A DNA stretch of 16,232 nucleotides from a virus (Duplodnaviria > Heunggongvirae > Uroviricota > Caudoviricetes), in the IMG/VR virus record IMGVR_UViG_2562617151_000002, positions 1 through 16,232 of that record; one strand, 5' to 3'. Shown one piece after another: positions 1,165-16,232 of the stretch. Numbering within the stretch: the first letter of the stretch is position 1; every line of letters starts with the position of its first letter. The notes under the pieces are model-generated. The model made no database searches. It had not been told where the DNA came from and worked only from the letters and a program-made list of their open reading frames with translations. Made by a program: the position numbers and the translations under genes.

Positions 1165-1391
1165 TTTCTTTCCTCTGTTATGCCATCACCCGCGCTCACC
1201 TGGACAGTATGCAGCGGAGACTGAAGCGCCGCAATGCAAGCTTGCCGTGTTGTGAGGTAAGGAGATTTTGGCTTGGTTGGATCTTTACGTGTTGCCTGTA
1301 GGCGGCCTGTTCGTATCCAGTTGGTGGCGGTTGGTCTGGATATCTTAAGAAACTGACAGGCCTCATCGAGTGTGAGGCTGTATGGCTCCAT
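1020..1391 (-). CDS. xis: Excisionase-like small DNA-binding protein
   Basis: ATG at 1391-1389 shares a base with the stop of the upstream ORF (TAATG). N-terminus [31 protein letters not shown] resembles small wHTH excisionases. The frame stays open to 1020, overlapping the first 144 nt of int, so the real C-terminal extent is uncertain. Confidence 0.6.
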
Positions 1392-1696: not shown

Positions 1697-2058
1697 TATG
1701 CTCCAGCCTCCGGTGCTTTTGGCATTACTGCCCAGTGAGTGATATTGAAGTTTTCAAGGTCCCCGACCTGAAATGTCCACTGCCATTCTCCGGTTTCTTT
1801 TTGTCCCCAGGTGTACCAGAGAGAACGCCAGCCAATCAGCCAGCCTTCTCCATTAGCATCAAATAACAGAACACTTTCATTTGCTGGTGGCAGTTCAGCT
1901 GACACTGGTATTATTTTGTTTTCCAGTGCCGCACATTTAGCTTCAAGCGCGTCGAATTTACGTAACAGGTACTCAGCATTTGTTTCATTCACTTTCAGAT
2001 CTCGCGGTACACATTTCCCGCGAAGAAACCCTTCCATTTCGAAAACATTCATGCGCAT
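1696..2058 (-). CDS. Hypothetical phage protein (120 aa, Trp-rich C-terminus)
   Basis: ATG at 2058-2056 is the first gene of the leftward operon. C-terminal GEGWLIGWRSLWYTWGQKETGEWQW pattern resembles small lambdoid b-region/Ea-type proteins. Assignment is by position only. Confidence 0.5.
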   Translation of the reverse strand: MRMNVFEMEGFLRGKCVPRDLKVNETNAEYLLRKFDALEAKCAALENKIIPVSAELPPANESVLLFDANGEGWLIGWRSLWYTWGQKETGEWQWTFQVGDLENFNITHWAVMPKAPEAGA

Positions 2059-2180
2059 TTGCGTAACTCCGATAACTCGTTAAAACGTTCCATAAACATC
2101 CCGTAACCGCAATGCGTCGAATGTTTATCAGCTTAACGTTGCGAAGCTTCAGGCTGCGGCATTTTCTCAACTGTCAGATT

Positions 2181-2240
2181 CTGACCCGTCAAAATCTGAC
2201 GCATCAAAATCTGACCCGTCAAAATTTGATGCGTCGAAAT
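2181..2240. repeat. Four tandem 15-bp iteron-like repeats
   Basis: Units read directly: CTGACCCGTCAAAAT, CTGACGCATCAAAAT, CTGACCCGTCAAAAT, TTGATGCGTCGAAAT. Each carries a 10-bp near-palindrome (TGACNNGTCA) followed by an A-tract. Partial units flank both sides. Confidence 0.6.
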
Positions 2241-2260
2241 CTGGCAAAAAAGCGGGTTTT

Positions 2261-2320
2261 CACCCGTCAGAATCTGGCGGGGATCCGTCAGTAAAATCAA
2301 AACATGATCCGTCAGATAAA
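2261..2320. repeat. Additional CCGTCAG half-site repeats
   Basis: CCGTCAG occurs at 2264-2270, 2285-2291 and 2309-2315, each followed by A-rich sequence. Looks like a continuation of the iteron array. Confidence 0.4.
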
Positions 2321-2814
2321 AAACCTTCTCGTCCGGACGCTTCGCAACCGGACACGCAGACGGCTGAACAGGATTTTTTAACTCGCCATCCTGATGCGGT
2401 TGTATTCAGCCCTAAAAAGCGCCAGTGGGGGACGCAGGATGATTTGACCTGCGCACAGTGGCTCTGGAAAAAAATCATCGCCCTGTACGAGCAGGCTGCC
2501 GAATGTGACGGCGAGGTGGTTCGTCCCAAAGAACCGAACTGGACAGCCTGGGCAAACGAAATTCGCCTGATGTGTGTGCAGGATGGTCGTACTCACAAAC
2601 AAATCTGCGAGATGTACAGCCGCGTCAGCCGCGATCCGTTCTGGTGCCGTAACGTGCTCAGCCCGTCGAAGCTGCGGGAAAAATGGGATGAGCTTTCCCT
2701 GCGCTTATCGCCGTCCGTAAGCACGTACACCGAAAAACGCGAAGACGCGTACTTCAAAGCCAGTTACGACAACGTGGACTACAGCCAGATCCCGGCAGGA
2801 TTCAGGGGGTAATC

Positions 2815-3303
2815 ATGAGTCTTTTGAATGAAGTTCAGAAATTCATTGAAGCCCATCCGGGGTGTACTTCCGGAGACATTGCGGATGCTTTTGCAGGCTA
2901 CTCACGGCAGCGCGTTCTGCAGTCAGCAAGCAAGTTACGTCAGAGTGGGCGTGTGGCTCACCGTTGTGAAGGGGATACACGCAGACATTTCCCGCGCCTG
3001 ACTGAGAGAGCGCAGGAGCCGGAACCACAACCAGTTCGTGAAACCAGACCTGCGCGCAATTTCTATGTCGGCACTAACGATCCACGGGTAATTTTGTGCC
3101 TGACCCGCCAGGCTGAAGAACTGGAGTCCAGGGGCTTATACCGTCGTGCTGCAACCGTGTGGATGGCGGCATTCCGTGAAAGCCACTCCCAACCAGAACG
3201 AAACAATTTTCTGGCGCGTCGTGAGCGGTGTTTACGGAAAAGCAGCAAGCGCGCTGCATCGGGTGAAGAGTGGTATCTGTCAGGGAATTACGTGGGGGCT
3301 TAA
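2815..3303 (+). CDS. Putative regulator: N-terminal wHTH-like region plus PerC-like C-terminal domain
   Basis: ATG 2815 follows the upstream stop by 2 nt. C-terminal segment QAEELESRGLYRRAATVWMAAFRESHSQPERNNFLARRERCLR matches the PerC/Pch family signature (LE..GLYRRAA..W). N-terminus MSLLNEVQKFIEAHPGCTSGDIADAF looks like a small HTH. Confidence 0.5.
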   Translation: MSLLNEVQKFIEAHPGCTSGDIADAFAGYSRQRVLQSASKLRQSGRVAHRCEGDTRRHFPRLTERAQEPEPQPVRETRPARNFYVGTNDPRVILCLTRQAEELESRGLYRRAATVWMAAFRESHSQPERNNFLARRERCLRKSSKRAASGEEWYLSGNYVGA

Positions 3304-3956
3304 TGAGTAATAAATATTGCCAGGCGCTGGTGGAACTGCGGAACAAACCAGCCCATGAACTGAAGGAAGTGGGCGATCAGTGGCGCACGCCGGACAACAT
3401 TTTCTGGGGAATTAACACCCTGTTTGGCCCGTTTGTTCTGGATCTGTTCACTGACGGTGATAACACCAAATGTGCTGCGTATTACACGGCGGAAGACAAC
3501 GCGCTGGCGCATGACTGGTCAGAACGTCTTGCGGAGCTTAAAGGTGCTGCCTTTGGTAATCCCCCATACAGCCGCGCCAGTCAGCATGAGGGGCAATACA
3601 TCACAGGCATGCGTTACATCATGAAGCATGCCAGTGCCATGCGTGATAAAGGTGGGCGCTATGTTTTCCTGATCAAAGCTGCCACCAGCGAAGTGTGGTG
3701 GCCGGAAGATGCAGATCATATTGCTTTTATTCGCGGGCGTATTGGTTTTGAACTGCCTGCCTGGTTTATCCCGAAAGATGAGAAGCAGGTGCCGACAGGC
3801 GCTTTCTTCGCTGGTGCTATTGCTGTTTTCGACAAGACCTGGAAGGGACCGGCAATCAGCTACATCGGGCGCGATGAACTTGAGGCATGTGGTGAGGCGT
3901 TTCTGGCGCAGGTTCGCCAGCAGGCGGAAAAACTGGTCAGGGAGATGGCGGCATGA
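3303..3956 (+). CDS. Phage DNA N6-adenine methyltransferase (Dam-type, orphan)
   Basis: ATG 3303 overlaps the upstream stop (TAATG). Translation has W-TP near the N-terminus, FVLDLFTDGDN, and the catalytic NPPY motif (GNPPYSRAS). An in-frame GTG at 3270 is a less likely start. No restriction partner is adjacent. Confidence 0.8.
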   Translation: MSNKYCQALVELRNKPAHELKEVGDQWRTPDNIFWGINTLFGPFVLDLFTDGDNTKCAAYYTAEDNALAHDWSERLAELKGAAFGNPPYSRASQHEGQYITGMRYIMKHASAMRDKGGRYVFLIKAATSEVWWPEDADHIAFIRGRIGFELPAWFIPKDEKQVPTGAFFAGAIAVFDKTWKGPAISYIGRDELEACGEAFLAQVRQQAEKLVREMAA

Positions 3957-4279
3957 CGACGTTAACTCAATGCCAGCAGCAGGTGCTGGATATGCTGATT
4001 TCTTATCAGAAAGAACGTGGCTTCCCGCCAACCAATCAGGAGGTGGCAACCATGCTGGGATACCGTTCAGTGAATGCAGCGGTGGAGCATCTTCGCGCAC
4101 TGGAGAAAAAAGGCGTCATCACGATAAAGCGTGGTGTGGCCCGGGGGATCACGCTTCATACCGTGGTGAAGGACGACGACAGCGAGGCGGTCGGGATTAT
4201 CCGCTCACTGCTTGCCGGTGAGGAAAACGCCAGGCTGCGTGCAGCCCACTGGTTACATGAGAGGGGCCTGAAAGTATGA
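3953..4279 (+). CDS. LexA N-terminal DNA-binding-domain homolog lacking the S24 peptidase domain
   Basis: ATG 3953 overlaps the dam stop (ATGA). The 108-aa product aligns by eye with LexA residues 1-70 (LT..QQ.V.D.I...G.PPT..E.A..LGYRS.NAA.EHL.AL.KKGVI.I..G..RGI.L). The protein ends before any Ala-Gly cleavage site or Ser/Lys dyad. Confidence 0.75.
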   Translation: MTTLTQCQQQVLDMLISYQKERGFPPTNQEVATMLGYRSVNAAVEHLRALEKKGVITIKRGVARGITLHTVVKDDDSEAVGIIRSLLAGEENARLRAAHWLHERGLKV

Positions 4280-4671
4280 AGCTGATCCTACCTTTTCCGC
4301 CCAGCGTGAACACGTACTGGCGACACCCCAACAAAGGGGCGTTTGCTGGTAAGAGCCTGATAAGCGCGGCGGGGCGAAAATTCCAGAGCGCGGCGTGTGC
4401 AGCAATAGTTGAGCAGTTACGTCGTCTGCCGAAACCAACGTCGGCACCTGCTTCAGTGGAGATCGTGTTGTTTCCTCCGGATAACCGGATCCGCGATCTG
4501 GACAACTATAACAAGGCGCTGTTTGACGCCCTGACCCACGCGGGTGTGTGGGAAGACGACAGTCAGGTGAAAAGAATGCTGGTGGAGTGGGGACCGGTTA
4601 TCCCGGAGGGGAAGGTCGAGATCACTATCAGTAAGTACGAAAAAGCGAGTTGCAAATTAGCAACTCGGTAA
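4276..4671 (+). CDS. rusA: RusA-family Holliday junction resolvase
   Basis: ATG 4276 overlaps the upstream stop (ATGA). Translation has LPFPPSVNTYWR and RDLDNYNKALFDALTHAGVWEDDSQV, the RusA core with catalytic Asp residues. Confidence 0.8.
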   Translation: MKLILPFPPSVNTYWRHPNKGAFAGKSLISAAGRKFQSAACAAIVEQLRRLPKPTSAPASVEIVLFPPDNRIRDLDNYNKALFDALTHAGVWEDDSQVKRMLVEWGPVIPEGKVEITISKYEKASCKLATR

Positions 4672-4716
4672 CGGAATTGAGCAACACCCTAAATTTGGGT
4701 ATTACCTCGTTAAAGA

Positions 4717-4736
4717 TACTGTATTTATGAACAGTG
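4717..4736. promoter_or_regulatory. Near-consensus LexA operator (SOS box)
   Basis: TACTGTATTTATGAACAGTG matches the E. coli LexA box TACTG-(N10)-CAGTA, with CTGT at 4719-4722 and ACAG at 4731-4734. It sits about 100 bp upstream of the next gene start, next to a candidate TTGATA(4742-4747)-17-TAAGTT(4765-4770) promoter. Confidence 0.65.
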
Positions 4737-4833
4737 TATCCTTGATAACTATTAAAAATCGCAGTAAGTTCATCCTGCATCAACGAAAAGGGAGTGCAGT
4801 CCCGCTCGTGGATAAAAATTTGTGGAGAAACCA

Positions 4834-5649
4834 ATGAATCAGTTGCTTGTAATTGATGGCGTTTCTGTGCGCCAGTACTTCGAATCTAACTACTGTCTTA
4901 ACGACCTTCAGAAAGCAGCTCTTCTTGCCGCTGGTGAGAATCGCTCCTCCCGTTCGCTGGAAGTTCACGAGTTTATGCGTCGTCCTGAAACGAAGGCTCT
5001 TGTGGAATTATTGGAAGAAGAAACTACGGGAGATTCCCGTAGTATTCCTGTCATCACCATTCAGGGGCGCAATGGTGGGACGTATGTCTGTAAAGAGCTG
5101 GTCTATGCATATGCAATGTGGATCAGCCCGGCATTCAGCTTAAAAGTGATACGTACTTTTGATGCGCTTCATAATTCATCACCAGAAGAAACCACATCCG
5201 ACAAAATTAAATCCGGGGTCATTCTGCTTGAATCAGCAGCAAAGACTCTAAATCTGTCAAACTCCTCGAAACTTGGTGCATACCAGAAATTATCAAAGGT
5301 AGCTGGTCTTCCTGAACTTATGCCGATCTATGCCATTGATGCACCTGCTGATGCGCCAGATGGTTCAAGCCGCCCTACGCTGTCGCTGAGTGCACTGCTG
5401 AAGCAGTATGGTATCCGCCTGACGGCTAATCAGGCATATCACCAGATGGCGAAGCTGGGGATCGTTGAACAACGCGAACGATACAGCCGTACCGCGATTA
5501 ACAACATCAAAAAATTCTGGTCGCTGACCGCGAAAGGCTGCATGTTCGGCAAGAACATCACCAGTCCTGCAAATCCGCGCGAGACGCAGCCGCATTTCTT
5601 CGAATCCCGATTCCCTGAGCTGTTAAAGCTGCTCGATACCGTTCATTGA
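4834..5649 (+). CDS. Phage antirepressor-like protein (Bro-N/AntA-like N-terminus, KilA-C/ANT-like C-terminus)
   Basis: ATG 4834 has GGAG 6 nt upstream; the in-frame GTG at 4822 is less likely. N-terminal LLVIDGVSVRQYFESNYCLNDLQKAA ... GTYVCKELVYAYAMWISPAFSLKVI and C-terminal AKLGIVEQRE ... KGCMFGKNI resemble phage antirepressor domains. Confidence 0.6.
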   Translation: MNQLLVIDGVSVRQYFESNYCLNDLQKAALLAAGENRSSRSLEVHEFMRRPETKALVELLEEETTGDSRSIPVITIQGRNGGTYVCKELVYAYAMWISPAFSLKVIRTFDALHNSSPEETTSDKIKSGVILLESAAKTLNLSNSSKLGAYQKLSKVAGLPELMPIYAIDAPADAPDGSSRPTLSLSALLKQYGIRLTANQAYHQMAKLGIVEQRERYSRTAINNIKKFWSLTAKGCMFGKNITSPANPRETQPHFFESRFPELLKLLDTVH

Positions 5650-5650
5650 G

Positions 5651-6646
5651 GTGACCGTGAGAGCACTACTGACCCCTGAAATTGCCCCGCGTATGGGGAT
5701 CGTATTGTTCAGACCAGGTTCAGAGCTGATGCCCTTGTTTATGCAGGGGCGTGTCCTGCTGGAGCCTGAGCCGGAACGTTATTCATCTTTCGCCAGTGGT
5801 GCCGTTCCGGCGGCATCACAACCGCTGGCGGATGATCCTGCCGTTCGGGCCGTGTTCCGCAATGAGGCAGTGATCCGTCGTGCTGGTGGCGTGGAATGTC
5901 TTGAAAGCTGGTTACTTCGTGAAAAAGGCTGCCAGTGGCCTCATTCCGACTGGCACAGCGAGAACATGACAACAATGCGACACGCTCCGGGCGCAATCCG
6001 TCTGTGCTGGCACTGCGATAACCAGCTGCGCGATCAGTTCACGGAACGGCTGGAATCAATGGCAACGGATAACTGTGCCCGCTGGGTGTTGTCTGTTGTG
6101 CGTCGGGATCTCGGTTTTGATGACAGTCATGTTGTGACAATGCCGGAACTGTGCTGGTGGCTGATTCGTAATGATCTGGCGGATGCCTTACCGGAAAGTG
6201 CAGCCCGTAAGGCACTGAGATTACCGAAGCCTGTTGTGCCGTCTGTTACCCGGGAAAGTGACCTTGTGCCTTCGGTTCCTGCCACCAGCATCATCCAGGA
6301 TAAGGCGAAAAAGGTGCTGGCGCTGAAAGTGGATCCGGAGTCGCCGGAGTCTTTTATGTTACGCCCAAAACGTCACCGCTGGGTTAATGAAAAGTACACG
6401 CGCTGGGTTAAGACGCAGCCGTGCGCATGTTGTGGAAAACCTGCTGATGATCCCCACCACCTGATAGGCCACGGTCAGGGGGGAATGGGTACAAAAGCGC
6501 ATGACCTTTTTGTGTTGCCTTTGTGCAGAAAGCATCACGACGAGCTGCATGCGGATACCGTGGCATTTGAAGAGAAGTATGGCTCCCAGCTGGAGCTGAT
6601 ATTTCGTTTTATCGATCGCGCACTGGCGATTGGTGTGCTGGCCTGA
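5651..6646 (+). CDS. Prophage protein with C-terminal Cys/His HNH-like motif (DUF968-like)
   Basis: 331-aa ORF immediately after the upstream stop. C-terminus [23 protein letters not shown] ... [10 protein letters not shown] looks like a zinc-binding HNH-type module. Start is uncertain: GTG 5651, GTG 5657 or ATG 5693. Confidence 0.55.
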
Positions 6647-6663
6647 TTTTGTGGAGAAAGTTA

Positions 6664-7047
6664 ATGCGTGATATTCAGATGGTTCTTGAACGTTGGGGAG
6701 CGTGGGCGGCTAATAATCATGAAGATGTGACCTGGTCGTCCATTGCCGCCGGTTTTAAGGGATTAATTCCTTCAAAAGTAAAATCTCGCCCGCAATGTTG
6801 TGACGATGACGCGATGATCATTTGCGGGTGCATGGCCCGTCTGAAAAAGAACAACAGCGATTTACACGATTTATTAGTAGATTATTATGTATGTGGTATG
6901 ACATTCATGTCACTGGCAAGTAAGCATTGCTGCTCGGATGGTTATATCGGGAAAAGGTTACAGAAGGCTGAGGGCATAATTGAAGGGATGTTAATGGCAT
7001 TAGATATCCGGTTAGATATGGATATCGTTGCTAATAATTCTAATTGA
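6664..7047 (+). CDS. Late-gene antiterminator Q-like protein (small QuuD-type)
   Basis: ATG 6664 preceded by GGAG (6652-6655). The 127-aa product is Cys-rich ([23 protein letters not shown]), consistent with a zinc-binding Q. It lies directly upstream of the porin and lysis genes, as in DLP12. The ORF track extends to TTG 6649. Confidence 0.6.
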
Positions 7048-7079
7048 TATGCAATTGTTTACTAAAAGTTATTAAAAAT

Positions 7080-7098
7080 GGGGCGTGGAAACGCCCCC
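7080..7098 (-). terminator. Rho-independent terminator candidate for the porin gene
   Basis: 7-bp GC stem GGGGCGT/ACGCCCC with a 4-nt loop. On the minus strand it is followed by ATTTTTAAT. It lies about 140 nt downstream of the porin stop. Confidence 0.5.
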
Positions 7099-7184
7099 AA
7101 AATAAAGGGTAATATATAACAGAAGGTTTATATAGTAAGAAGCAAGGTAGTGCTTCTAAAGGAAGTGGCTTGAGGGCTCCACTT

Positions 7185-7224
7185 ATATGTTGCGGAGGCA
7201 AAGCCTCCCGCAACATATCTTTTT
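7185..7224 (+). terminator. Rho-independent terminator candidate downstream of Q
   Basis: Long inverted repeat ATATGTTGCGGAGGC / GCCTCCCGCAACATAT (one bulge) followed by CTTTTT on the plus strand. Confidence 0.55.
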
Positions 7225-7235
7225 CGTAAGTCAGA

Positions 7236-8318
7236 TTAGAACTGATAAACCAGACCTACAGCGACGATGTCGTCGGTATCAATACCAGCTGTTTTGGTAA
7301 ACTTACTATCGTCAATTAAGTTGATTTTGTAATCAACAAAAGTGGACATGTTTTTATTAAAGTAGTAAGTAGCACCGACATCGACATACTTGACTAAGTC
7401 TCGGTCACCATGAACACCAAGGTCTTTACCTTTTGACTGAAGGTAAGCAACAGATGGACGCAGACCGAAGTCAAACTGATATTGTGCTACTGCTTCAAAG
7501 TTTTGTGCTTTGTTTGCAATATGGTTATTACCAAAAACGGTCATATTCTGAGTTTCAGAATATGTGGTAGCCAGATAGATATTGTTCGCATCATATTTCA
7601 GGCCTGCAGCCCATACTTCCGCATTTTTGCCGGAGGCATTGAATTTGCTCTTACCATAGGCGACCTGACCGTCAGTGCGATCTGATTTAGCATAGGTTGC
7701 ACCCACGCCGAATCCTTCATACTCATAAGTAGTGGAGAAACCGAAACCATCACCATTGGCTTCAGTTACGTCAGTGCGGTCATTTTTACCCTGATACTGA
7801 GCAGCAAAGTTCAGGCCATCGACCAGACCAAAGAAGTCGTTGTTACGATAAGTTGCAACACCAGTAGTGCGACCAGTCATGAACACATCTGTTTGGGTCC
7901 AGGTATCACCACCGAATTCTGGCAGGACGTCAGTCCACGCACCGATGTCGTATGCTACACCGTAGTTACGGCCGTAATCGATTGAGCCGTAATCACCAAA
8001 TTTCAGGCCTGCAAATGCAAGACGGGTTTTGTCTTTGGAAGAACCTTGAGATTCAGCACGGTTGCCTTTGAATTCATATTCCCACTGACCGAAACCAGTC
8101 AGTTGATCGTTGATTTGGGTTTCACCTTTGAAGCCAAGACGGGCATAAGTAGTATCACCATCATCTGCATCATTAGAGGAGAAGTAGTGCTTGGCATTAA
8201 CTTTCCCGTATAGATCCAGCTTGTTACTGTCTTTATTATAAATTTCAGCTGCCTGAGCAGACATCGCCATCAGTACTGATGCAGCTACAGCAGAAATTGC
8301 CACTGTTAATTTTTTCAT
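7236..8318 (-). CDS. nmpC: Prophage-encoded general porin (OmpC/OmpF/PhoE family; NmpC/Lc type)
   Basis: 360-aa ORF with a signal peptide ([23 protein letters not shown]|AEIYNKD), porin motifs ([52 protein letters not shown]) and C-terminal VGLVYQF. It sits between Q and the holin on the opposite strand, as nmpC does in DLP12 and lc in PA-2. The exact symbol is uncertain. Confidence 0.85.
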
Positions 8319-8745
8319 TGTACGCCCTTTTTTTTGAACTATTATTAAAAAATGATGTCACTGCGCGATAAATATTCATCTAATCAATGCGATTATTTCA
8401 AGATGTAAGTTTTAGTTTCTCATTTAATTTGTGAAGTAGATCTCTATTTTTATCTAAACCTTTTCTATCTAATCCTATTCATGGCTCTTGTTTGAACGAA
8501 AATAAATCTATTAGCTAATTTATATTAATGGCACTTATTTATAAGAGATCTATAATTCTTTAGCTTAATTTAAACAAACTAAAAATAACATCGGAAATTA
8601 TTCATTGGTTATTTGTTGAAGTTTTCTTATGTATTTGTGGTGGTGTTTTGAACACTCGGTGGCATTCTCACAAATATCATTTAGTAGTTTACGTACGTAA
8701 AAAATTGGTTATGCTGTTAAGAGTGGTTACTTCGTCACACAGCTT
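8319..8745. promoter_or_regulatory. AT-rich non-coding region upstream of the porin and lysis cassette
   Basis: About 430 bp with no ORF of 60 aa or more and many A/T runs (8340-8640). Probably holds the porin promoter (minus strand) and possibly a late promoter, for example TTGAAC at 8648-8653 with AAATAT about 18 bp downstream. Confidence 0.4.
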
Positions 8746-8775
8746 AAACCCGCCGTCGAGCGGGTTTTTCCATTT
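8746..8775 (+). terminator. Rho-independent terminator candidate about 130 bp upstream of the holin (tR'-like)
   Basis: Stem AACCCGC/GCGGGTT (8747-8753 / 8760-8766) with loop CGTCGA, followed by TTTTCCATTTTTT on the plus strand. Confidence 0.5.
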
Positions 8776-8907
8776 TTTGAGTCTCGATATTAGCTGATAA
8801 CCCAATACCTGAGTTATTCACTGACTCCGAATCTGTTACGTTTCTGCCTTTATTGCGATACGTAGTATCCCCTTAATTTACACCCGCTTTGTCTGCGAGG
8901 TGGGGTT

Positions 8908-9123
8908 ATGAAATCCATGGATAAGTTAACAACGGGTGTCGCCTATGGCACCTCAGCAGGTAGTGCCGGATACTGGTTTTTACAGCTGCTAGATAAAGTC
9001 ACGCCCTCACAGTGGGCGGCAATTGGAGTGCTGGGTAGCCTGGTATTTGGCCTGCTGACGTACCTGACAAACCTTTATTTCAAGATTAAAGAAGATAAGC
9101 GCAAGGCTGCGAGAGGTGGATAA
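8908..9123 (+). CDS. S: Class II holin, phage-21 S-type (pinholin) with dual-start motif
   Basis: 71-aa ORF beginning MKSM (Met1 and Met4). Two hydrophobic segments and a basic C-terminus ([13 protein letters not shown]). Stop overlaps the endolysin start (TAATG). Confidence 0.85.
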
Positions 9124-9620
9124 TGCCTCCATCATTACGAAAAGCTGTTGCTGCTGCTATTGGTGGCGGGGCTATTGCTATAGCATCTGTGTTAATCACT
9201 GGCCCAAGTGGTAACGATGGTCTGGAAGGTGTGAGACATAATCCTTACAAAGACATAGTTGGTGTATGGACTGTATGTTACGGGCATACAGGAAAAGACA
9301 TCATTCCCGGTAAAACGTATACCGAAGCAGAGTGCAAAGCCCTCCTGAATAAAGACCTTGCCACTGTCGCCAGACAAATTAACCCGTACATCAAAGTCGA
9401 TATACCGGAAACAACGCGCGGCGCTCTTTACTCGTTCGTCTACAACGTGGGTGCTGGCAATTTCAGAACATCGACGCTTCTTCGCAAAATCAACCAGGGC
9501 GATATCAAAGGCGCATGTGACCAGCTACGTCGCTGGACATACGCTGGCGGTAAGCAATGGAAAGGGCTGATGACTCGCCGTGAGATTGAGCGTGAAGTCT
9601 GTTTGTGGGGGCAGCAATGA
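9123..9620 (+). CDS. R: SAR endolysin (T4-lysozyme-like muramidase, R21-type)
   Basis: N-terminal Gly/Ala-rich signal-anchor-release segment [30 protein letters not shown], followed by a lysozyme catalytic region ([25 protein letters not shown]). 165 aa. Confidence 0.9.
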
Positions 9621-10054
9621 GCAGGTTAACCGCGATTATCTCCGCTCTGGTTATCTGCATCATCGTCTGTCTGTCATGGGCTGTTAATCATTACCGTGAT
9701 AACGCCATTACCTATAAAGAACAGCGCGATAAAGCCACGTACATCATCGCTGACATGCAGAAGCGTCAACGTGACGTAGCAGAACTCGATGCCAGATATA
9801 CAAAGGAGCTTGCTGATGCTAACGCGACTATCGAAAGTCTCCGTGCTGATGTTTCTGCTGGGCGTAAGCGCCTGCAAGTCGCCGCCACCTGTGCAAAGTC
9901 AACGACCGGAGCCAGCGGCATGGGCGATGGAGAAAGCCCAGGACTTACAGCAGATGCTGAACTCAATTATTACCGTCTCCGAAGTGGAATCGACAAGATA
10001 ACCGCGCAGGTTAACTACCTGCAGGAATACATCAGGACGCAATGCCTGAATTAA
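9617..10054 (+). CDS. Rz: Rz i-spanin
   Basis: ATG 9617 overlaps the endolysin stop (ATGA). N-terminal TM segment ([20 protein letters not shown]), then a coiled-coil periplasmic domain. The ORF track extends to GTG 9605. Confidence 0.8.
9816..10001 (+). CDS. Rz1: Rz1 o-spanin lipoprotein, embedded in Rz in the +1 frame
   Basis: ATG 9816 preceded by AAAGGAG (9802-9808). Lipoprotein signal [20 protein letters not shown], then a Pro-rich mature region ([13 protein letters not shown]). Lies entirely within the Rz coordinates. Confidence 0.7.
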
Positions 10055-10083
10055 TTTTTTTGCAAATCACAAAGTCCATTTAA

Positions 10084-10107
10084 TGAGCCTCGCGATGCGG
10101 GGCTTTT
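10084..10107 (+). terminator. Terminator candidate after Rz (first of two)
   Basis: Hairpin GAGCCTCGC-GAT-GCGGGGCT followed by TTTTT. Confidence 0.45.
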
Positions 10108-10114
10108 TGCAATA

Positions 10115-10139
10115 AATGCGTACCGCAACGCATGTTTTT
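10115..10139 (+). terminator. Terminator candidate after Rz (second of two)
   Basis: Stem ATGCGT/ACGCAT with loop ACCGCA, followed by GTTTTTT. Confidence 0.55.
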
Positions 10140-10255
10140 TACACCGAACCTGCCCCTTTGGAATGGGCCTTTGAGGATACCAGTTAGTGCTGGCGAGCCT
10201 CGGTGGGCTGGTTTCCTGTGCGGCAAAGGTTCATTTCAAAGAGTAGGTACACGCT

Positions 10256-10753
10256 ATGAAATCATTAACCCTCTTCAATCAACCAATTCGTATCGGTGAA
10301 GATGGCATGATCTGCCTCACTGATATGTGGAAAGCCAGTGGTAAAAGTGAATCTGAATCGCCTTACCACTACCTGCGAAACAAGCAGACCAAAGAGTTCT
10401 TAGCCGAGCTGGAGAAAAACCACGAATCTGTGGTTTTTACTGAGCGCGGTGTACACGGTGGAACATATGGCGGGAAGTTTGTTGCTTACGATTATGCGGC
10501 TTGGTTAAACCCCGGGTTCAAGTACGCGGCCTATAAAGTCCTCGATGACTACTTCACCGGAGAACTTCAGCATCGCAACAGCTTAAGTGCGCAGCTCAAC
10601 ATGAAATGTCATGAGTTTGACCAGAAGAAAGACATGGCGAGCTTCTGCGGACAAGGGCTGGCAGCATGGCGCTATACGAAGCCAGTGTTGGTCGCTGAGA
10701 TTAACTCCCTGGCTAACCAGCTGCAGATTACGATCCCCGGGCTTCCGGGATGA
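10256..10753 (+). CDS. KilA-N domain protein
   Basis: ATG 10256 preceded by AGAGTAGG. Translation FNQPIRIGEDGMICLTDMWKASGK ... GTYGGKFVAYDYAAWLNPGFKYA fits the KilA-N/APSES-type fold pattern. Occupies the post-lysis position where bor sits in DLP12. Confidence 0.7.
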   Translation: MKSLTLFNQPIRIGEDGMICLTDMWKASGKSESESPYHYLRNKQTKEFLAELEKNHESVVFTERGVHGGTYGGKFVAYDYAAWLNPGFKYAAYKVLDDYFTGELQHRNSLSAQLNMKCHEFDQKKDMASFCGQGLAAWRYTKPVLVAEINSLANQLQITIPGLPG

Positions 10754-11007
10754 GTGATCGTGTTATTGAATGCGCCTCCAGAGCGGGGCGCGACTTCTCA
10801 GAGTTCATGAAAGGCGAGAAGGGCATGATGGAAGCATTGGCCTCGGTGGATGAGTTTGGCGAGCAGCTGCGCCTCAACGGCTGTGTCAATCATCACTTTG
10901 TTAGCTACATGATGCGGAACTCGATCATGCAGGCATTCATGGACATGGCAAAAGCCGAGAGGAAAGAAGAGCGCCGGCGTAAGCGAGCGGAAGCAAAAGC
11001 GAAGTAG
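10750..11007 (+). CDS. Hypothetical protein (85 aa) with basic C-terminal tail
   Basis: ATG 10750 overlaps the KilA-N stop (ATGA). C-terminus KAERKEERRRKRAEAKAK. No recognisable family. Confidence 0.5.
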   Translation: MSDRVIECASRAGRDFSEFMKGEKGMMEALASVDEFGEQLRLNGCVNHHFVSYMMRNSIMQAFMDMAKAERKEERRRKRAEAKAK

Positions 11008-11293
11008 CCATTACAAAGCCTATCTACGGGTGGGCTTGATAATGGCTTATACCCTACACGGGATAACTTAACTGATATCCCTTTTAAAGGATAAAGGTAT
11101 TCAAGCCTGACACATCATGCGCTGTATCGTCGCCGTGTTCCCGTATTAACAGAGACCGTAGCCCGACGGGGAACTCCTTCTGCGCGAGTGTGCGGGAATA
11201 ATCAAAAACGATGCACACCGGGGTTACCGGGTACACATATTTCATCATGCCAGCGAGTCCGGTTCTGGCACGGAAGAAACCGGACGTTATGAT

Positions 11294-11704
11294 TTAGTGC
11301 GGAAATATTTGTGTAGTGTTCTGAATGTTCTCAGTAAAGAGTAATGAATTATCAAAGGTATAGTAATACCTTTTGTTTTCGTGGATATTTGTAATCCATC
11401 TGAAAACCCCTGCTGTAGCAAGATTTTTCCTGTATTCGTAAAATGATAACTCTCCTGATTTGAATCCTTTTAAGGTGGCTTCTATAAGGCATTTATTTTT
11501 TGAAAATCTTACATTTACAACCTTACCCTGTCCTTTTATTAAAACCGTATTATCGTTTTCAAGAACAAGATGAATATTCTCTGTGGCTAAATAGTAAATG
11601 TAATGTGAGACATTGTGACGTTTTAGTTCAGAATAAAACCAGTGATAGTTTAAATTATTTCGCACTTTATCGAATATTTGTTTAAAAATGGCAACCTGAG
11701 CCAT
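11294..11704 (-). CDS. AT-rich cargo gene, hypothetical (possibly YbcV-like envelope-protein family)
   Basis: Visibly lower G+C than its flanks. The ATG at 11704-11702 has GGAAGG 8 nt upstream and gives 136 aa; the ORF track starts 5 codons earlier at 11719. Opposite strand to the late operon. The family guess rests on position and size only. Confidence 0.5.
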
Positions 11705-11761
11705 TGTAGTACCTTCCATGTGATATGAGGGGGCGTAGTCTGCACGATTATCTAGATTGCT

Positions 11762-11995
11762 TCAATCTGGTCTAACCTGTTTTCTGAGCAATTCAGTAAT
11801 GTCACTCTTTTCTTTGTTTGCTTCAGGCGAAACTCTTTTTTCTGAGCACAGTCTCCGGCGGCAGGCTTCAATGACCCAGGCTGAGAAATTCCCGGACCCT
11901 TTTTGAACAAGAGCGATGTTAATTTGTTCAATCATTTGGTTAGGAAAGCGGATGTTGCGGGTTGTTGTTCTGCGGGTTCTGTTCTTCGTTGACAT
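11762..11995 (-). CDS. Small basic ribbon-helix-helix-like putative DNA-binding protein
   Basis: 77-aa ORF. N-terminal basic stretch then IRFPNQMIEQINIALVQKGSGNFSAWVIEACRRRL looks like an Arc/MetJ-type strand-helix-helix. Lies 42 bp upstream of the AT-rich gene on the same strand. Confidence 0.45.
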   Translation of the reverse strand: MSTKNRTRRTTTRNIRFPNQMIEQINIALVQKGSGNFSAWVIEACRRRLCSEKRVSPEANKEKSDITELLRKQVRPD

Positions 11996-12059
11996 GAGGT
12001 TGCCCTGTATTCAGTGTCGCTGATTTGTATTGTCTGAAGTTGTTTTTACGTTAAGTTGA

Positions 12060-12376
12060 TGCAGATCAATTAATACGATACCTGCGTCATAATTGATTAT
12101 TTGACGTGGTTTGATGGCGTAGATGCACGTTGTGACATGTAGATGATAATTATTATCATTTTTCGGGTCCTTTCCGGCGATCCGACAGGTTACGGGGCGG
12201 CGACCTCGCGGGTTTTCGCTATTTATGAAAATTTTCCGGTTTAAGGCGTTTCCGTTCTTCTTCGTCGTAACTTAATGTTTTTATTTAAAATACCCCCTGA
12301 AAAGAAAGGAAACGACAGGTGCTGAAAACGAACTTTTGGGCCTCTGTCGTTTCCTTTCTCTGTTTTGGGCCGTGGA
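12060..12376. other. cos: Lambda-type cohesive-end site (cosQ-cosN-cosB)
   Basis: From my recollection of the lambda genome ends: ...CCGACAGGTTACG followed by cosN GGGCGGCGACCT at 12175-12186, then the cosB region CGCGGGTTTTCGCTATTTATGAAAATTTTCCGGTTTAAGGCG... up to the nu1 start, with only a few substitutions. Confidence 0.85.
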
Positions 12377-12383
12377 ATGAACA

Positions 12384-12457
12384 ATGGAAGTCAACAAAAA
12401 GCAGCTGGCTGACATTTTCGGTGCGAGTATCCGTACCATTCAGAACTGGCAGGAACA
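12384..12457 (+). pseudogene. nu1: Terminase small subunit nu1, 5' stub (first about 25 codons only)
   Basis: ATGGAAGTCAACAAAAAGCAGCTGGCTGACATTTTCGGTGCGAGTATCCGTACCATTCAGAACTGGCAGGAACA matches the lambda nu1 start (MEVNKKQLADIFGASIRTIQNWQE). Identity ends after 12457 and the frame stops soon after. Confidence 0.85.
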
Positions 12458-12661
12458 CCGGGCAGCATGGCGGACAGTCGGTCGCAGGCGTCCGGGAAGT
12501 TTGAGCAGAATAACCATGTGGTGATTAACAACGACGGCACGAACGGGCAGATAGGTCCGGCTGCTCTGAAGGCGGTGTATGACATGGCCCGCAAGGGTGC
12601 CCGTGATGAAATTCAGACACAGATGCGTGATGGTGGCCTGTTCTCCGGAGGTGGACGATGA
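12458..12661 (+). pseudogene. H: 3' remnant of tail tape-measure gene H
   Basis: Sequence after the junction encodes ...SQASGKFEQNNHVVINNDGTNGQIGPAALKAVYDMARKGARDEIQTQMRDGGLFSGGGR, and its stop overlaps the M start (ATGA) as in lambda. It is in a different frame from the nu1 stub. Confidence 0.8.
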
Positions 12662-12987
12662 AGACCTTCCGCTGGAAAGTGAAACCCGGTATGGATGTGG
12701 CTTCGGTCCCTTCTGTAAGAAAGGTGCGCTTTGGTGATGGCCATTCCCAGCGAGCGCCTGCCGGGCTGAATGCCAACCTGAAAACGTACAGCGTGACGCT
12801 TTCTGTCCCCCGTGAGGAGGCCACGGTACTGGAGTCGTTTCTGGAAGAGCACGGGGGCTGGAAATCCTTTCTGTGGACGCCGCCTTATGAGTGGCGGCAG
12901 ATAAAGGTGACCTGCGCAAAATGGTCGTCGCGGGTCAGTATGCTGCGTGTTGAGTTCAGCGCAGAGTTTGAACAGGTGGTGAACTGA
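12658..12987 (+). CDS. M: Minor tail protein M (intact)
   Basis: The 109-aa product (MKTFRWKVKPGMDVASVPSVRKVRFGDG...SAEFEQVVN) matches lambda gpM from memory over essentially its full length. Confidence 0.9.
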   Translation: MKTFRWKVKPGMDVASVPSVRKVRFGDGHSQRAPAGLNANLKTYSVTLSVPREEATVLESFLEEHGGWKSFLWTPPYEWRQIKVTCAKWSSRVSMLRVEFSAEFEQVVN

Positions 12988-14936
12988 TGCAGGATAACAG
13001 CGCACAGGCGGCAGCGGCCTCGCAGACTGCATCGGCAAACTCCGCAACAGCAGCTAAAAAATCAGAAACCAACGCGAAAAATAGCGAGACAGCCGCAAAG
13101 ACGAGCGAAACCAACGCAAAGTCCAGCCAGACGGCAGCGAAGACCAGCGAAACGAATGCTAAAGCCAGTGAAACTGCAGCAAAAAACAGCCAGGTTGCAG
13201 CAGCCCAAAGCGAGAGCGCGGCAGCCGGTTCTGCGACTTCAGCAGCTGGATCAGCAACTGCTGCGGCTAACAGCCAGAAAGCTGCGAAGACGAGTGAAAC
13301 TAACGCAAAGTCCAGCCAGACGGCAGCGAAGACCAGCGAAACGAATGCCAAAGCCAGTGAAACTGCGGCGAAAAGCAGTCAGGATGCAGCAGCCCAAAGC
13401 GAGAGTGCTGCAGCTGGTTCTGCAAGCGCGGCGGCTGCTTCTGCCACTGCATCAGCCAACAGTCAAAAAGCAGCAAAAACCAGTGAAACCAATGCAAAGA
13501 CAAGCGAGACTGCAGCGGCGAACTCGGCGAAAGCATCGGCAGCAAGCCAGACGGCAGCTAAAGCAAGCGAAGATGCAGCCAGAGAGTACGCAAGCCAGGC
13601 TGCGGAGCCGTATGAATATGTCTTACAGCCGCTGCCTGATGTGTGGATACCGTTTAACGATTCGCTGGATATGATTACGGGCTTTTCGCCATCATATAAA
13701 AAAATTGTTATTGGTGACGATGAAATAACGATGCCTGGCGACAAGATTGTTAAGTTTAAACGTGCATCGAAAGCAACCTATATTAACAAATCTGGTGTGC
13801 TGACAGAGGCTGCCATTGACGAGCCACGATTTGAACGTGATGGCCTGCTTATTGAGGGGCAAAGAACAAACTACATGCTCAATTCGGAAAGCCCTGCCAG
13901 TTGGGGGCGATCGTCAAATATGGATGTGCCCGAAACTGGGACGGATAGTTTTGGTTTTACCTATGGAAAGTTTGTCTGTAACGATTCTCTGATTGGGCAA
14001 ACCTCAGCCATTAATATGGCATCAATTGCTGCAACAAAGTCAGTTGATGTCTCAGGCGATAATAAATACGTGACAACCTCATGTCGTTTTAAAACAGAAC
14101 TGCAGGTAAGGTTGCGTATCCGGTTTGATAAATATGACGGTAGCGCAACAACTTTTCTTGGTGATGCGTATATTGATACACAAACGCTTGAAACTAATAT
14201 GACAGGCGGCGCTGCCTCAAGGATTACAGCGAGAGTCAGAAAGGACGAAGCTACCGGATGGATTTTTGCAGAGGCAACAATTCAGGCAATTGATGGGGAG
14301 TTAAAAATAGGTTCTCAGATACAGTATTCTCCTAAGCAGGGCGGGGCAACCGTATCTGGTGACTATATTTATCTGGCCACCCCACAAGTAGAAAATGGGC
14401 CTTGTGTATCATCTTTTATTATATCAGGAACGACGGCGGCGACCCGTGCAAGTGATATGGTAACTATTCCCGCAAGAAACAATATTTATAAACAACCTAT
14501 CAGTGTTCTTATTGAAGTTAATAAGAATTGGGATATTGTGCCAAACGGAGCACCAAGAATTTTTGACCTGAACGCAACATCATCATTCGCTGAAGAGTCT
14601 TTTATATTTGCATTCCGAGGGCCGACATCAACAGTTCTTCCTGGATCGGCATATGTTAGTGTTGGTTCCCCGTCAAGAGGAACTGGTAACAATGAAGTTG
14701 TAAACACTGGAATATATGGAGTTAAAATAGACAAAGATGGCGGCTTAGCAGCGTCGCTGAATGGTAACATTTCATCAAAAGTCAGTACTTCATGGGGTGG
14801 TGCTATAAAATCAACGGCAATAAGAATAGGAGGGCAGACAACTGCCGGAACGAGGCATTTGTTTGGACACATCAGGAATTTCAGAATATGGCATAAAGAA
14901 TTAACTGATGCGCAAATGGGGGAGAGTATTAAATGA
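12987..14936 (+). CDS. Side-tail-fibre-like protein; apparent fusion of the L start to an internal Stf repeat region, with a lectin-like C-terminal domain
   Basis: First 10 nt ATGCAGGATA equal the lambda L start (MQD), then the sequence switches to Ala-rich AKTSETNAKSSQTAAK repeats typical of Stf. The C-terminal approx 400 aa are non-repetitive and end in GHIRNFRIWHKELTDAQM, resembling the last strand of LamG/concanavalin-like jelly rolls. ATG overlaps the M stop. Confidence 0.7.
   Translation: MQDNSAQAAAASQTASANSATAAKKSETNAKNSETAAKTSETNAKSSQTAAKTSETNAKASETAAKNSQVAAAQSESAAAGSATSAAGSATAAANSQKAAKTSETNAKSSQTAAKTSETNAKASETAAKSSQDAAAQSESAAAGSASAAAASATASANSQKAAKTSETNAKTSETAAANSAKASAASQTAAKASEDAAREYASQAAEPYEYVLQPLPDVWIPFNDSLDMITGFSPSYKKIVIGDDEITMPGDKIVKFKRASKATYINKSGVLTEAAIDEPRFERDGLLIEGQRTNYMLNSESPASWGRSSNMDVPETGTDSFGFTYGKFVCNDSLIGQTSAINMASIAATKSVDVSGDNKYVTTSCRFKTELQVRLRIRFDKYDGSATTFLGDAYIDTQTLETNMTGGAASRITARVRKDEATGWIFAEATIQAIDGELKIGSQIQYSPKQGGATVSGDYIYLATPQVENGPCVSSFIISGTTAATRASDMVTIPARNNIYKQPISVLIEVNKNWDIVPNGAPRIFDLNATSSFAEESFIFAFRGPTSTVLPGSAYVSVGSPSRGTGNNEVVNTGIYGVKIDKDGGLAASLNGNISSKVSTSWGGAIKSTAIRIGGQTTAGTRHLFGHIRNFRIWHKELTDAQMGESIK
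13116..13234. repeat. Intragenic direct repeat, copy 1 (about 119 bp)
   Basis: GCAAAGTCCAGCCAGACGGCAGCGAAGACCAGCGAAACGAATGC... recurs 189 bp downstream with a handful of substitutions. Confidence 0.7.
13305..13423. repeat. Intragenic direct repeat, copy 2 (about 119 bp)
   Basis: Near-identical to 13116-13234. The 189-bp offset equals 63 codons, so the protein repeat stays in frame. Confidence 0.7.
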
Positions 14937-15214
14937 AAGATTTAACACTCAAATTTGCCGACAGGGCCGACTTTTCGGCTTTTATGGGAAGTATTGGCTA
15001 TTATAATGACGAGTCGATGCAGGATGATATTCTTATTGATGTGATAGGTAACGTGTACAAAGAAACCGGAGAGCTGACTGAAGATGGCGAACCGGTATGT
15101 GTTAAGGAAGACGGATATTTTGTAAACGTGCGCATCATTAATGATGTGAAAACACCGTCAATATTCGATGAATACGTGGTTGCTGTTGAGCATCAACTTC
15201 GTGGCTGGATGTGA
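14933..15214 (+). CDS. Hypothetical small acidic protein (93 aa)
   Basis: ATG 14933 overlaps the fibre gene stop (ATGA). No recognisable motif. Sits where tfa would be in lambda but is not Tfa-like. Confidence 0.5.
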   Translation: MKDLTLKFADRADFSAFMGSIGYYNDESMQDDILIDVIGNVYKETGELTEDGEPVCVKEDGYFVNVRIINDVKTPSIFDEYVVAVEHQLRGWM

Positions 15215-15223
15215 GGAAGAAAA

Positions 15224-15928
15224 ATGGCTACATCGACAGTAATTCCGGGAGACATCACCACGCTAAAGGGAGATGTTAGTAAAGCAAAGGAAGATATTTC
15301 CTCTATTAACGGAAAAGTATCAACGCTTCAGACTGATATGGCCAGTGCACAGCAGGATATCAGCACCAGATACACAAAAACTGAAGTTGATAATAAGCTG
15401 AAAAACAAACTGGAAGTGAATGCTCTGGAAAGCGGTAATTATGGTGGAGATTTTTACCCGCTGACTGGTCGTGAAGCGTTTTATTTATGGAATTTGGGCA
15501 CGACTACAGCGGCGGCAAACCTTTATCTTAATCCTGACCCTGCAATTTCGTCTGTACTGCGGTCAACATCGTCTATTCGCTATAAACATTCAGTAGAGAC
15601 GATAGATTCAGAGCACGCCGATCTCATTTTCAGGATGCGCCCTGTATGGTACAGGTCGCAATGTGAAAATGACAGGCGTGACTGGGGATTCTACGGATTA
15701 ATTGCCGAGGAAGTAGGAGAAATTGCCCCTCAGTTTGTACACTGGCGACCAGCCAACGAGAATGATGCTCCTGAAGCTATTTCCAGCAATGGTCTTGTTG
15801 CCGAAGGTGTAATGTACGAACGTCTGGTTGTTCCACTGATTCACCATATCCAGAAACTGACTGAAAGAGTTGATGAACTTGAGTCAGAATTGAAGTTGTT
15901 ATCAACTTCCCAAAGCGATATCGGATAA
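15224..15928 (+). CDS. Short coiled-coil fibre-like protein with C-terminal intramolecular chaperone (peptidase S74-like) domain
   Basis: ATG 15224 preceded by GAGGAAGA. N-terminal heptad-like region. C-terminus has the motif series seen in tail-spike chaperone domains: SSIRYK (compare SDIRLK), WGFYGLIAEEVGEIAPQFV (compare GVIAQEVEEVFPEVV), GVMYERLVVPLIHHIQKLTERVDELE. Confidence 0.6.
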   Translation: MATSTVIPGDITTLKGDVSKAKEDISSINGKVSTLQTDMASAQQDISTRYTKTEVDNKLKNKLEVNALESGNYGGDFYPLTGREAFYLWNLGTTTAAANLYLNPDPAISSVLRSTSSIRYKHSVETIDSEHADLIFRMRPVWYRSQCENDRRDWGFYGLIAEEVGEIAPQFVHWRPANENDAPEAISSNGLVAEGVMYERLVVPLIHHIQKLTERVDELESELKLLSTSQSDIG

Positions 15929-15938
15929 AGGAGGAGTA

Positions 15939-16232
15939 ATGGATATAACACCTTTTCTTCATGCGCTTTGTGCTGTGGCTGCGCAGGTAATGATTGGTCT
16001 TTTTGCCGGAAACTGGGTTTACGGGGCGATAGCCGGTTGTACGTTCTTCATTGCGCGTGAACACACCCAGGCAGAATATCGCTGGATTGAAATGTTCGGG
16101 CATGGCAAGCGGATTAACATGCCGTGGTGGGGCGGTTTTGATCCGCGTGTTTGGGATGTGGCAAGCCTGATAGATTTTGCTGTGCCGGTGGTGGCGTGTC
16201 TGCTGGTCTGGCTGTTGGTTAATCGTGGGTGA
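15939..16232 (+). CDS. Small integral membrane protein (two predicted TM segments)
   Basis: ATG 15939 preceded by AAGGAGGAG. Hydrophobic segments ALCAVAAQVMIGLFAGNWVYGAIAGCTFFI and LIDFAVPVVACLLVWLLV. Stop codon is the last triplet of the window. Confidence 0.5.
   Translation: MDITPFLHALCAVAAQVMIGLFAGNWVYGAIAGCTFFIAREHTQAEYRWIEMFGHGKRINMPWWGGFDPRVWDVASLIDFAVPVVACLLVWLLVNRG

Follow-up and report, generated by a model that had tools for sequence, protein, structure and literature searches.

Why should a lambda-type cos site be retained in DNA that carries no terminase for it to serve, and does its retention mark a mobile element packaged by other phages, a trait kept for the benefit of the host or simply the state reached so far by a prophage in decay? 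This question is raised by a 16,232-bp stretch of DNA, hereafter called the window, in which an apparently intact cos site lies beside a junction between the beginning of nu1 and the end of H. Here we consider in turn the structure of the site and its junction, the element that contains them, the distribution of the junctions and the readings that might account for the site.

The cos site and the nu1/H junction

Window positions 11833-12457 correspond to the lambda cos region and are 100% identical to that of the phage PhiR49_1. In blastn comparisons with lambda (NC_001416), 11833-12194 aligns to lambda 48141-48502 with 95.0% identity (E 5e-164) and 12195-12457 to lambda 1-264 with 97.0% identity (7 mismatches, 1 gap, E 3e-123), which places the top-strand nick between 12194 and 12195. 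With the subsite definitions of the Feiss laboratory (PMC4669245, PMC9026076), the following elements were located:

12165-12171, plus strand: cosQ, GGGTCCT, the packaging-termination subsite (role as in PMC4669245), equivalent to lambda 48473-48479
12195-12206, plus strand: 12-nt cohesive end GGGCGGCGACCT within cosN, window 12195 aligning to lambda bp 1
12244-12359, plus strand: cosB, with R3, the I1 interval, R2 and R1 in lambda order
12244-12259, plus strand: R3, identical to lambda bp 50-65
12303-12318, minus strand (inverted): R2, exact 16-mer
12344-12359, plus strand: R1, exact 16-mer

The distance from cosQ to the nick is 23 bp, which is the lambda spacing, and from lambda 48487 to bp 72 the window sequence is identical to that of lambda. 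A 55-nt pattern running from cosQ through cosN has a single match in the window (none is expected by chance), and the 16-bp R sequence has two exact matches in opposite orientations. The interval expected to hold the IHF site I1 (12260-12302) shows two differences from lambda, A73G and T102C, and is identical to that of PhiR49_1; the spacer between R2 and R1 is 1 bp shorter than in lambda, with the same spacing found in PhiR49_1, in the K-12 prophages DLP12 and Qin and in strain A25. From cosQ to the ATG of nu1 there are nine differences from lambda, all lying outside the cosQ, cohesive-end and R subsites. Judged from its sequence, the site is structurally complete and of lambda type with a complex cosB, as an earlier note on this DNA had claimed, and the alignment and pattern matches confirm cosQ, cosN and cosB one by one. 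Given its 100% identity to the cos of PhiR49_1, it is presumably also cleavable and usable by terminase.

To the right of cos, identity with nu1 ends at 12457, after 24 codons and 2 nt, in agreement with the earlier estimate of a cut after about codon 25. The alignment with lambda called for in the earlier note fixes the breakpoint of this junction, hereafter J2, and defines the features around it:

12384-12521, plus strand: nu1 stub ORF, with Nu1 codons 1-24 (to 12455), 21 out-of-frame codons and a stop
12455-12457: junction J2, microhomology ACA, lambda 264 joined to lambda 12897
12458-12661, plus strand: 3' end of the tape-measure gene H, lambda H residues 785-853 (69 aa)
12658-12987, plus strand: minor tail gene M, intact, 109 aa, 99% to lambda M (Pfam Phage_min_tail, E 5e-38)

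All 24 complete codons of the stub are identical to those of lambda Nu1, its profile match to Pfam Phage_Nu1 covers residues 1-25 (E 5e-10) and its stop codon lies at 12519-12521. On the other side, window 12452-12996 matches lambda 12894-13438 with 98.9% identity by blastn, which comprises the last 210 nt of H, the whole of M and the first 10 nt of L; within the H tail (98.9% to lambda 12894-13103) an ATG at 12467 opens a 64-aa ORF. The sequences surrounding the breakpoint, GGAACA in nu1 and GGTACA in H, match at five of six positions. The join is indeed out of frame, as previously proposed, whereas the number of H codons retained is exactly 69 instead of about 68.

The loss across J2 amounts to ~12.6 kb and includes the rest of nu1, A, W, B, C/nu3, D, E, FI, FII, Z, U, V, G, T and H codons 1-784, so that the proposal of one event removing everything from nu1 through most of H is upheld, this single junction accounting for the loss. 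When 19 lambda head and tail proteins were compared by tblastn with the element plus about 8.3-8.7 kb of flank per side (33 kb), the matches were restricted to Nu1 1-25, H 785-853 and M. Genes for terminase, capsid or tail tube were absent from these 33 kb, as the earlier note had also concluded from the window. With residues 1-25 as the sole Nu1 match, an intact nu1 in another frame or elsewhere in the searched DNA is ruled out, while the elements of cosN and cosB are all in place.

The host locus and the parent phage

The host of the window is Escherichia sp. 4_1_40B, in scaffold JH660540.1 of draft assembly GCA_000158415.2. The window is a 16.2-kb excerpt of a prophage remnant flanked by att sites, and the previously suggested size of roughly 16 kb has to be corrected to 20.74 kb, the distance between 47-bp direct repeats of the argU 3' end located at window -59 and +20680. 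The argU gene, encoding tRNA-Arg(UCU), lies outside the window, 16 bp beyond the integrase gene in the source scaffold, and is followed on the left flank by fimZ and the sfm fimbrial operon; the right flank carries genes for a ybcY-like methyltransferase and an omptin, followed by envY-like, ybcH-like and nfrA-like genes. The locus is that of the cryptic prophage DLP12 in K-12, according to gene calls and blastn against K-12 positions 563000-590000. Besides cos and M, the remnant retains these genes and sites:

1-1164, minus strand: integrase, 387 aa, PF00589, identical to the integrase of PhiR49_1
1020-1475, minus strand: xis candidate ORF overlapping the 5' end of int (HTH_17, E 2e-8, residues 34-64)
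2174-2281, plus strand: origin-type iterons with a period of about 15 bp, in truncated O, found by repeat search
6664-7047, plus strand: antiterminator Q, 127 aa, Pfam Phage_antitermQ
8908-10054, plus strand: lysis cassette, assigned by Pfam families and identical to that of PhiR49_1
8908-9123, plus strand: class II holin (Pfam)
9123-9620, plus strand: lysozyme (Pfam)
9617-10054, plus strand: Rz-type spanin (Pfam)

The true start of the xis candidate is probably internal to its ORF, and its layout with int matches that of xisD and intD in the DLP12 of K-12. The frame of truncated O has no start codon before 2444, and a candidate late promoter and terminator lie upstream of the holin gene. An Rfam search of the whole window at gathering thresholds gave no matches. 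The argU site with its att repeats, the tyrosine integrase (PF00589), the lambdoid order of the late region and the flanks syntenic with those of DLP12 are combined with the loss of genes for autonomous lytic growth (cI, cro, the 5' end of O, terminase, all head genes, tail tube, L, K, I and J); the remnant is a defective (cryptic) lambdoid prophage of the DLP12/argU family.

The remnant is collinear in gene order with Escherichia phage PhiR49_1 (PV340568.1, 45,270 bp), a phage that is viable according to its GenBank description and on which a literature search found no paper; prophages identical to it occupy argU in several complete E. coli genomes. The correspondence is as follows:

Window -13 to 2105: PhiR49_1 1-2119, 2 substitutions
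2103-2105: junction J1, microhomology GTA, removing 5,203 bp of the PhiR49_1 map (2120-7322)
Window 2103-12457: PhiR49_1 7323-17675, 0 substitutions in 10,355 bp and 2 homopolymer-length differences
12995-12996: junction J3, microhomology TA, L codon 3 joined in frame to stf codon ~150
12987-14936, plus strand: L'-'stf fusion, L codons 1-3 followed by stf from codon ~150 on, 649 aa, EIG72172.1
Window 16233-20730: right end of PhiR49_1 up to 45270, 2 substitutions in about 4.5 kb (~99.96%)

Identity is thus 99.9-100% over window 1-2105 and 2103-12457, cos included. PhiR49_1 differs from the remnant in being complete at 45.3 kb and in the segment that extends from the H tail to tfa: window 12458-16232, comprising the H tail, M and stf with the genes beyond them, represents another allele that shares 93-94% identity with PhiR49_1, whereas H and M are 98.9% identical to lambda. 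This makes the parent a mosaic sibling of PhiR49_1. The nu1/H deletion previously described is real, but it is one of three, since the immunity region with the 5' end of O and the stretch from L to stf are also gone. All three deletions lie at exact microhomologies of 2-3 bp and leave the remnant without 24.5 kb of the PhiR49_1 map in three blocks, about 45 kb being reduced to 20.7 kb. J1 took away the genes for an HD hydrolase, yfdQ, yfdP, cI, cro, ymfL, ymfM and the first 77 codons of O, and both pL and pR are deleted from the remnant; the loss at J3, about 6.6 kb, comprises L, K, I, J, lom and the N-terminal domain of stf.

Distribution of the junctions and related elements

The 64-aa ORF of the H tail provides a search handle for J2, being called as a separate gene only where H is truncated. 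It was found at nine places, the source scaffold and eight other assemblies, and all eight of the latter (two from ENA, two Logan runs and four metagenome scaffolds) have the 40-mer spanning J2 without a mismatch. The junction is missing from all 5,426 complete E. coli genomes, and its 40-mer is absent from GTDB representative genomes, JGI metagenome contigs and IMG/VR viral contigs; these last, empty scans are no guide to its rarity, given that it does occur in draft assemblies of ENA, Logan and NCBI. Three of the contigs with J2 (L020, L024 and L026) have the start of L intact, while in assembly ERZ18740350 (contigs L018 and L027) J1 and J2 occur together at argU, and the deletions that follow M are different ones. 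The 40-mer across J1 is present in L027, L029 and L033, and J3 was seen in the source and in Logan SRR015749, and a few further NCBI isolates have it in the form of a Q2P protein variant; the 649-aa L'-'stf ORF was found on one contig, the source scaffold JH660540.1.

From the copies of J2 in other assemblies, some with intact L, it follows that this junction is real, inherited and older than J3. Two contigs beyond the source have chromosomal flanks around J2 (L027 and L029), and both lie at argU near fimZ and sfm; with all flanked copies at this one site there is no hint of horizontal movement, and inheritance of the remnant looks vertical. Decay is ongoing independently in sister lineages, for example in L018.

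Retention of cos after loss of the neighbouring genes is found in other lambdoid remnants as well:

K-12 DLP12: lambda 1018 joined to 22119 (A' to 'tfa), cos kept
K-12 Qin: lambda 719 joined to about 21245, cos kept
Strain A25: lambda 908 joined to 12917, an in-frame A'-'H fusion, with cos, M, L, K, I and J kept
GCA_013359045.1 and GCA_012172615.1 (L028, L031): Nu1-J fusion gene at argU, cos kept

The deletions in DLP12, Qin, A25 and the two drafts are independent of J2. In the independent remnants cos is kept with no more than about 1 kb on its right side, and morphogenesis genes are lost, in a set of five that is biased by having been collected through a search for cos; FG92-1 provides a counterexample, in which a deletion from lysozyme to J took cos out. 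Aligned at cos, the remnants DLP12, Qin and A25 show identical cosQ, cosN and R2/R1 and a nearly identical R3. The H-side breakpoints of the window and A25 are close to each other (lambda 12897 and 12917); sequence comparison found no motif shared by the two junctions, and their nearness is possibly a coincidence.

Among the closest known counterparts is DLP12, which has the same integration site and flanks and the same order of genes, with int, Q, porin, holin, lysozyme and Rz followed by ybcV (DUF1398), DUF3950, cos, a nu1 homologue, a tail-fibre deletion, ybcY and ompT. Its cos region is 96.5-96.9% identical to that of the window and contains all the subsites. In DLP12 (nohD, aaaD', 'tfaD), however, the nu1 homologue nohD is complete and about 100 codons of A remain, the deletion ending in tfa, whereas the remnant has nu1 cut at codon 24/25, a deletion that ends in H and a retained M. 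DLP12 is also older, with insertions of IS3 and IS5 and another early region, while the remnant is still identical to a deposited phage, PhiR49_1, over 10 kb. In Qin (ydfO, ynfO, cos, nohA, stfQ, tfaQ), too, DUF1398, DUF3950, cos with every subsite conserved and a nu1 homologue (nohA) follow one another, the latter joined directly to stf/tfa remnants, but the chromosomal site is different, the breakpoint lies at the nu1/A boundary and there is no remnant of H or M.

[quoted passage not shown] They differ in lacking a lambda-type cosB, in encoding next to cos the protein Rpp that redirects TerS and in possessing their own modules of regulation and replication without a phage lysis cassette, whereas the remnant has a full lambda-type cosB, the nu1 stub by cos and otherwise plain phage DNA. 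Membership among PICIs or satellites is ruled out by the lambda-type cosB and the Nu1 stub in the place of Rpp, as well as by the phage Q, the lysis cassette, M, the stf remnants and the 99.9-100% identity to phage over 12.4 kb.

A further comparison is offered by the defective lambdoid prophages of O157 Sakai, in which packaging or morphogenesis genes are likewise deleted; with complementation from co-resident prophages, some of them still undergo excision, packaging and transfer (PMC2669165, Asadulghani et al. 2009). Most of these prophages are nearly of full length and still have their modules for regulation and replication, unlike the remnant, in which the immunity region and a working O have also been lost. 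Retention of cos is an ordinary state of cryptic lambdoid prophages and does not define a new kind of element; what is new here is an allele of a well-known kind, the cryptic prophage of the DLP12 family that retains cos.

Readings of the retained cos site

Very probably, the cos site belongs to a DLP12-family prophage at argU in an early stage of decay and is a passive relic that should still be cleavable. Three illegitimate recombination events at homologies of 2-3 bp would have cut down a parent similar to PhiR49_1, J2 stripping away all the head and tail-shaft genes. Survival of cos can be attributed to a breakpoint that fell 263 bp to its right and to a time too short for point mutations to accumulate. 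With no substitution relative to PhiR49_1 over 10,355 bp, selection need not be invoked for the intact cos. That a remnant without repressor is tolerated although its Q and lysis cassette are intact may be explained by the joint loss of cI, pL, pR, cro and the start of O.

The remnant itself would make no use of cos. A terminase of lambda specificity, brought by an infecting phage or made by a co-resident one, would bind cosB and nick the DNA at 12194/12195, a prediction which follows from the lambda character of the R3 bases and of Nu1 residues 1-24 with the recognition helix. The ensuing double-strand break would probably turn the site into a recombination hot spot for incoming lambdoid phages, which would exchange the adjacent Q, lysis and cos module with the remnant. 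A role as donor of this module would be the most likely biological consequence of the site, productive transfer of the remnant not being the predicted outcome. The precedent is again DLP12, where recombination of the cos region with lambda exceeds that of Qin or Rac about 100-fold; of the junctions, half are adjacent to cos, and the rescued DLP12 genes are functional (PMC3945230, De Paepe et al. 2014). The near invariance of cosQ, cosN and the R sites in the old prophages DLP12 and Qin could reflect selection or repeated gene conversion as opposed to pure neutrality.

Alone, the remnant matters little except as a clean and datable case of early prophage decay, in which the type of the parent is known, three junctions are mapped and sister lineages give the order of events. 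As a further instance, it extends a pattern already known from the cryptic lambdoid prophages of E. coli, in which a usable cos is kept; such retained sites matter because terminase breaks promote exchange of late-region modules, as shown for DLP12.

Packaging in trans by a helper, which the earlier note had put forward, survives as a possibility that we regard as improbable: the remnant would be a helper-dependent mobilisable element, a natural cosmid or nascent satellite, whose 20.74-kb circle is replicated and packaged from cos as a head-to-tail dimer of 41.5 kb while a related phage supplies Int and Xis, O and other replication machinery, Q, terminase and virions. The 47-bp att repeats, int, the xis candidate, the ori iterons and cos have been preserved intact, without difference from PhiR49_1; the candidate late promoter and terminator lie ahead of the holin gene, and the dimer would have 92% of the length of the PhiR49_1 genome. 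Lambda accepts DNA of about 75-105% of its genome length for packaging, and small cosmids become packaged in multimeric form. There are also precedents in the O157 Sakai prophages without head or packaging genes that are packaged by complementation (PMC2669165) and in the small cos island EcCICFT073, which enters phage-sized capsids (PMC6739421).

Several findings weigh against such mobilisation. All flanked contigs with J2 sit at argU by fimZ and sfm, which fits vertical inheritance, and there were no matches in IMG/VR, JGI metagenome contigs and GTDB representatives. Because pL, pR and the N-terminus of O are deleted, excision and replication would depend wholly on a nearly identical helper, which would also recombine with the remnant. 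Moreover, int and xis are left without a promoter, and the remnant lacks immunity as well as any gene specific to satellites (Rpp, its own repressor, a replicase or a capsid-size factor), and the further deletions in sister lineages such as L018 indicate decay instead of a maintained element. It seems decidedly improbable that this is a satellite in the making, in which the deletions spared int, xis and the cis sites (attL, attR, ori iterons, cos and probably the late promoter) but took away the genes that act in trans, and a helper of PhiR49_1 type packages the dimer, moving the porin and omptin genes with it. Were the remnant transferable as a cos-packaged dimer, it would illustrate the origin of a satellite-like element from a phage by deletion alone.

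It is very unlikely that cos was kept by selection for a benefit to the host, for example as a decoy that titrates the terminase of invading lambdoid phages or is cut by it, or through M and the fusion proteins disturbing tail assembly. The site is kept in at least five independent remnants, with subsites almost invariant in the old DLP12 and Qin, and M is kept between two deletions both in the window and in L018, each time joined in frame at L codon 3; a defence that acts by blocking virion assembly is reported from other prophages (PMC10884400). However, the set of remnants was collected by a search for cos, the cos of the window has no substitution from PhiR49_1, so that selection cannot be deduced from the window, and a single chromosomal copy is unlikely to titrate terminase. 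The weakest alternative, with a probability close to nil, would make J2 an assembly artefact, as might be suspected from a draft scaffold (GCA_000158415.2) of a genome rich in similar prophages and from the absence of J2 in the complete genomes, but it is rejected given the exact 40-mer in eight other, independently assembled data sets, the position of the join at a 3-bp microhomology instead of a long repeat and the finding of J1 and J3, too, in other assemblies.

A separate observation concerns the region downstream of M. Among the contexts of the M protein, nine have intact H-M-L-K-I-J and one (L042) is rearranged. The window and L018 carry different deletions, the left ends of which lie within 1 bp of each other at L codon 3, in the centre of the palindrome GGAT/ATCC (which contains GATATC), and both produce in-frame fusions.

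Deletion endpoints beside cos, in H and at the start of L

Two different deletions downstream of M, one in the window (12987-12997) and one in its sister lineage L018, assembly ERZ18740350 (6521-6532), have left breakpoints that lie no more than 1 bp apart. They map to the midpoint of an 8-bp palindrome, GGAT/ATCC, which lies at codon 3 of L and encloses GATATC, the EcoRV site. In the window this codon is joined to stf, and in L018 to gene I (lambda 14829; coordinates of NC_001416), the latter lineage carrying a second junction further on (lambda 14901 to 16060). The first junction of each is in frame with the start codon of L, which overlaps the stop codon of M. The near-coincidence of these breakpoints could reflect a break hot spot, an effect of the palindrome or selection. 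Within the stf remnant of the window (13080-13517) there are internal repeats, offset by 189 bp and approximately 83% identical, which encode SETNAK-type repeats rich in Ala, Ser and Thr.

The H-side breakpoint of the nu1/H deletion (lambda 12897; window 12452-12661) lies 20 bp from that found in the remnant of E. coli strain A25 (lambda 12917; L006 9955-10141), where an independent deletion has joined A' to 'H in frame, giving a 126-aa fusion. Comparison of these two junction sequences revealed no common motif, and the closeness of the breakpoints may be a coincidence. Prophages of the same family as that in the window, also located at argU, are present in the draft E. coli genomes GCA_013359045.1 (L028 19941-20369) and GCA_012172615.1 (L031 11016-11444), both of which have a 657-aa gene call combining the Pfam domain Phage_Nu1 with J-protein domains. 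This Nu1-J gene is a further independent nu1-to-tail deletion in which cos is kept.

In Qin, a cryptic lambdoid prophage of K-12 (L017 6295-6652), the sequence left of the cos nick matches lambda 48260-48502 with 100% identity over 243 bp. This identity is above that of all other remnants examined and is in keeping with a past exchange between lambda and Qin.

Early region and iterons

The 5.2-kb deletion at window 2103-2105 has removed cI, cro and codons 1-77 of O, together with the expected site of pL and pR, and ends about 70 bp short of a set of repeats that look like a replication origin:

2174-2281, iterons with 15-bp spacing, of the TCAAAATCTGAC type

Different deletions affect the same early region in other draft genomes (L009, L012, L028 and L031).

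Porin gene, late region and differences from PhiR49_1

Two features lie between Q and the holin gene:

7236-8318, minus strand, intact porin gene of the nmpC/ompD type, 360 aa
8528-8767, promoter-like site (ATGGCA, 17-nt spacer, TATAAT) and terminator-like hairpin

The homologous nmpC of K-12 DLP12 is interrupted by IS5. Beyond the window, genes for an omptin and an alpha/beta hydrolase are located at the element's right end. Downstream of the promoter-like site, the strong terminator-like hairpin is located 140 bp before the holin gene, and the two are placed where a late promoter and a Q-antiterminated terminator are expected.

Over 10.3 kb, the window differs from the phage PhiR49_1 (PV340568.1) only in the length of two homopolymers, at 6478 (G7 against G6) and 8328 (T9 against T8). 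The G run, whose difference in length probably reflects a sequencing error in one of the records, lies inside a DUF968 gene, the product of which has 329 aa in the window and 313 aa in the PhiR49_1 record; the 329-aa form is also found in many other genomes.
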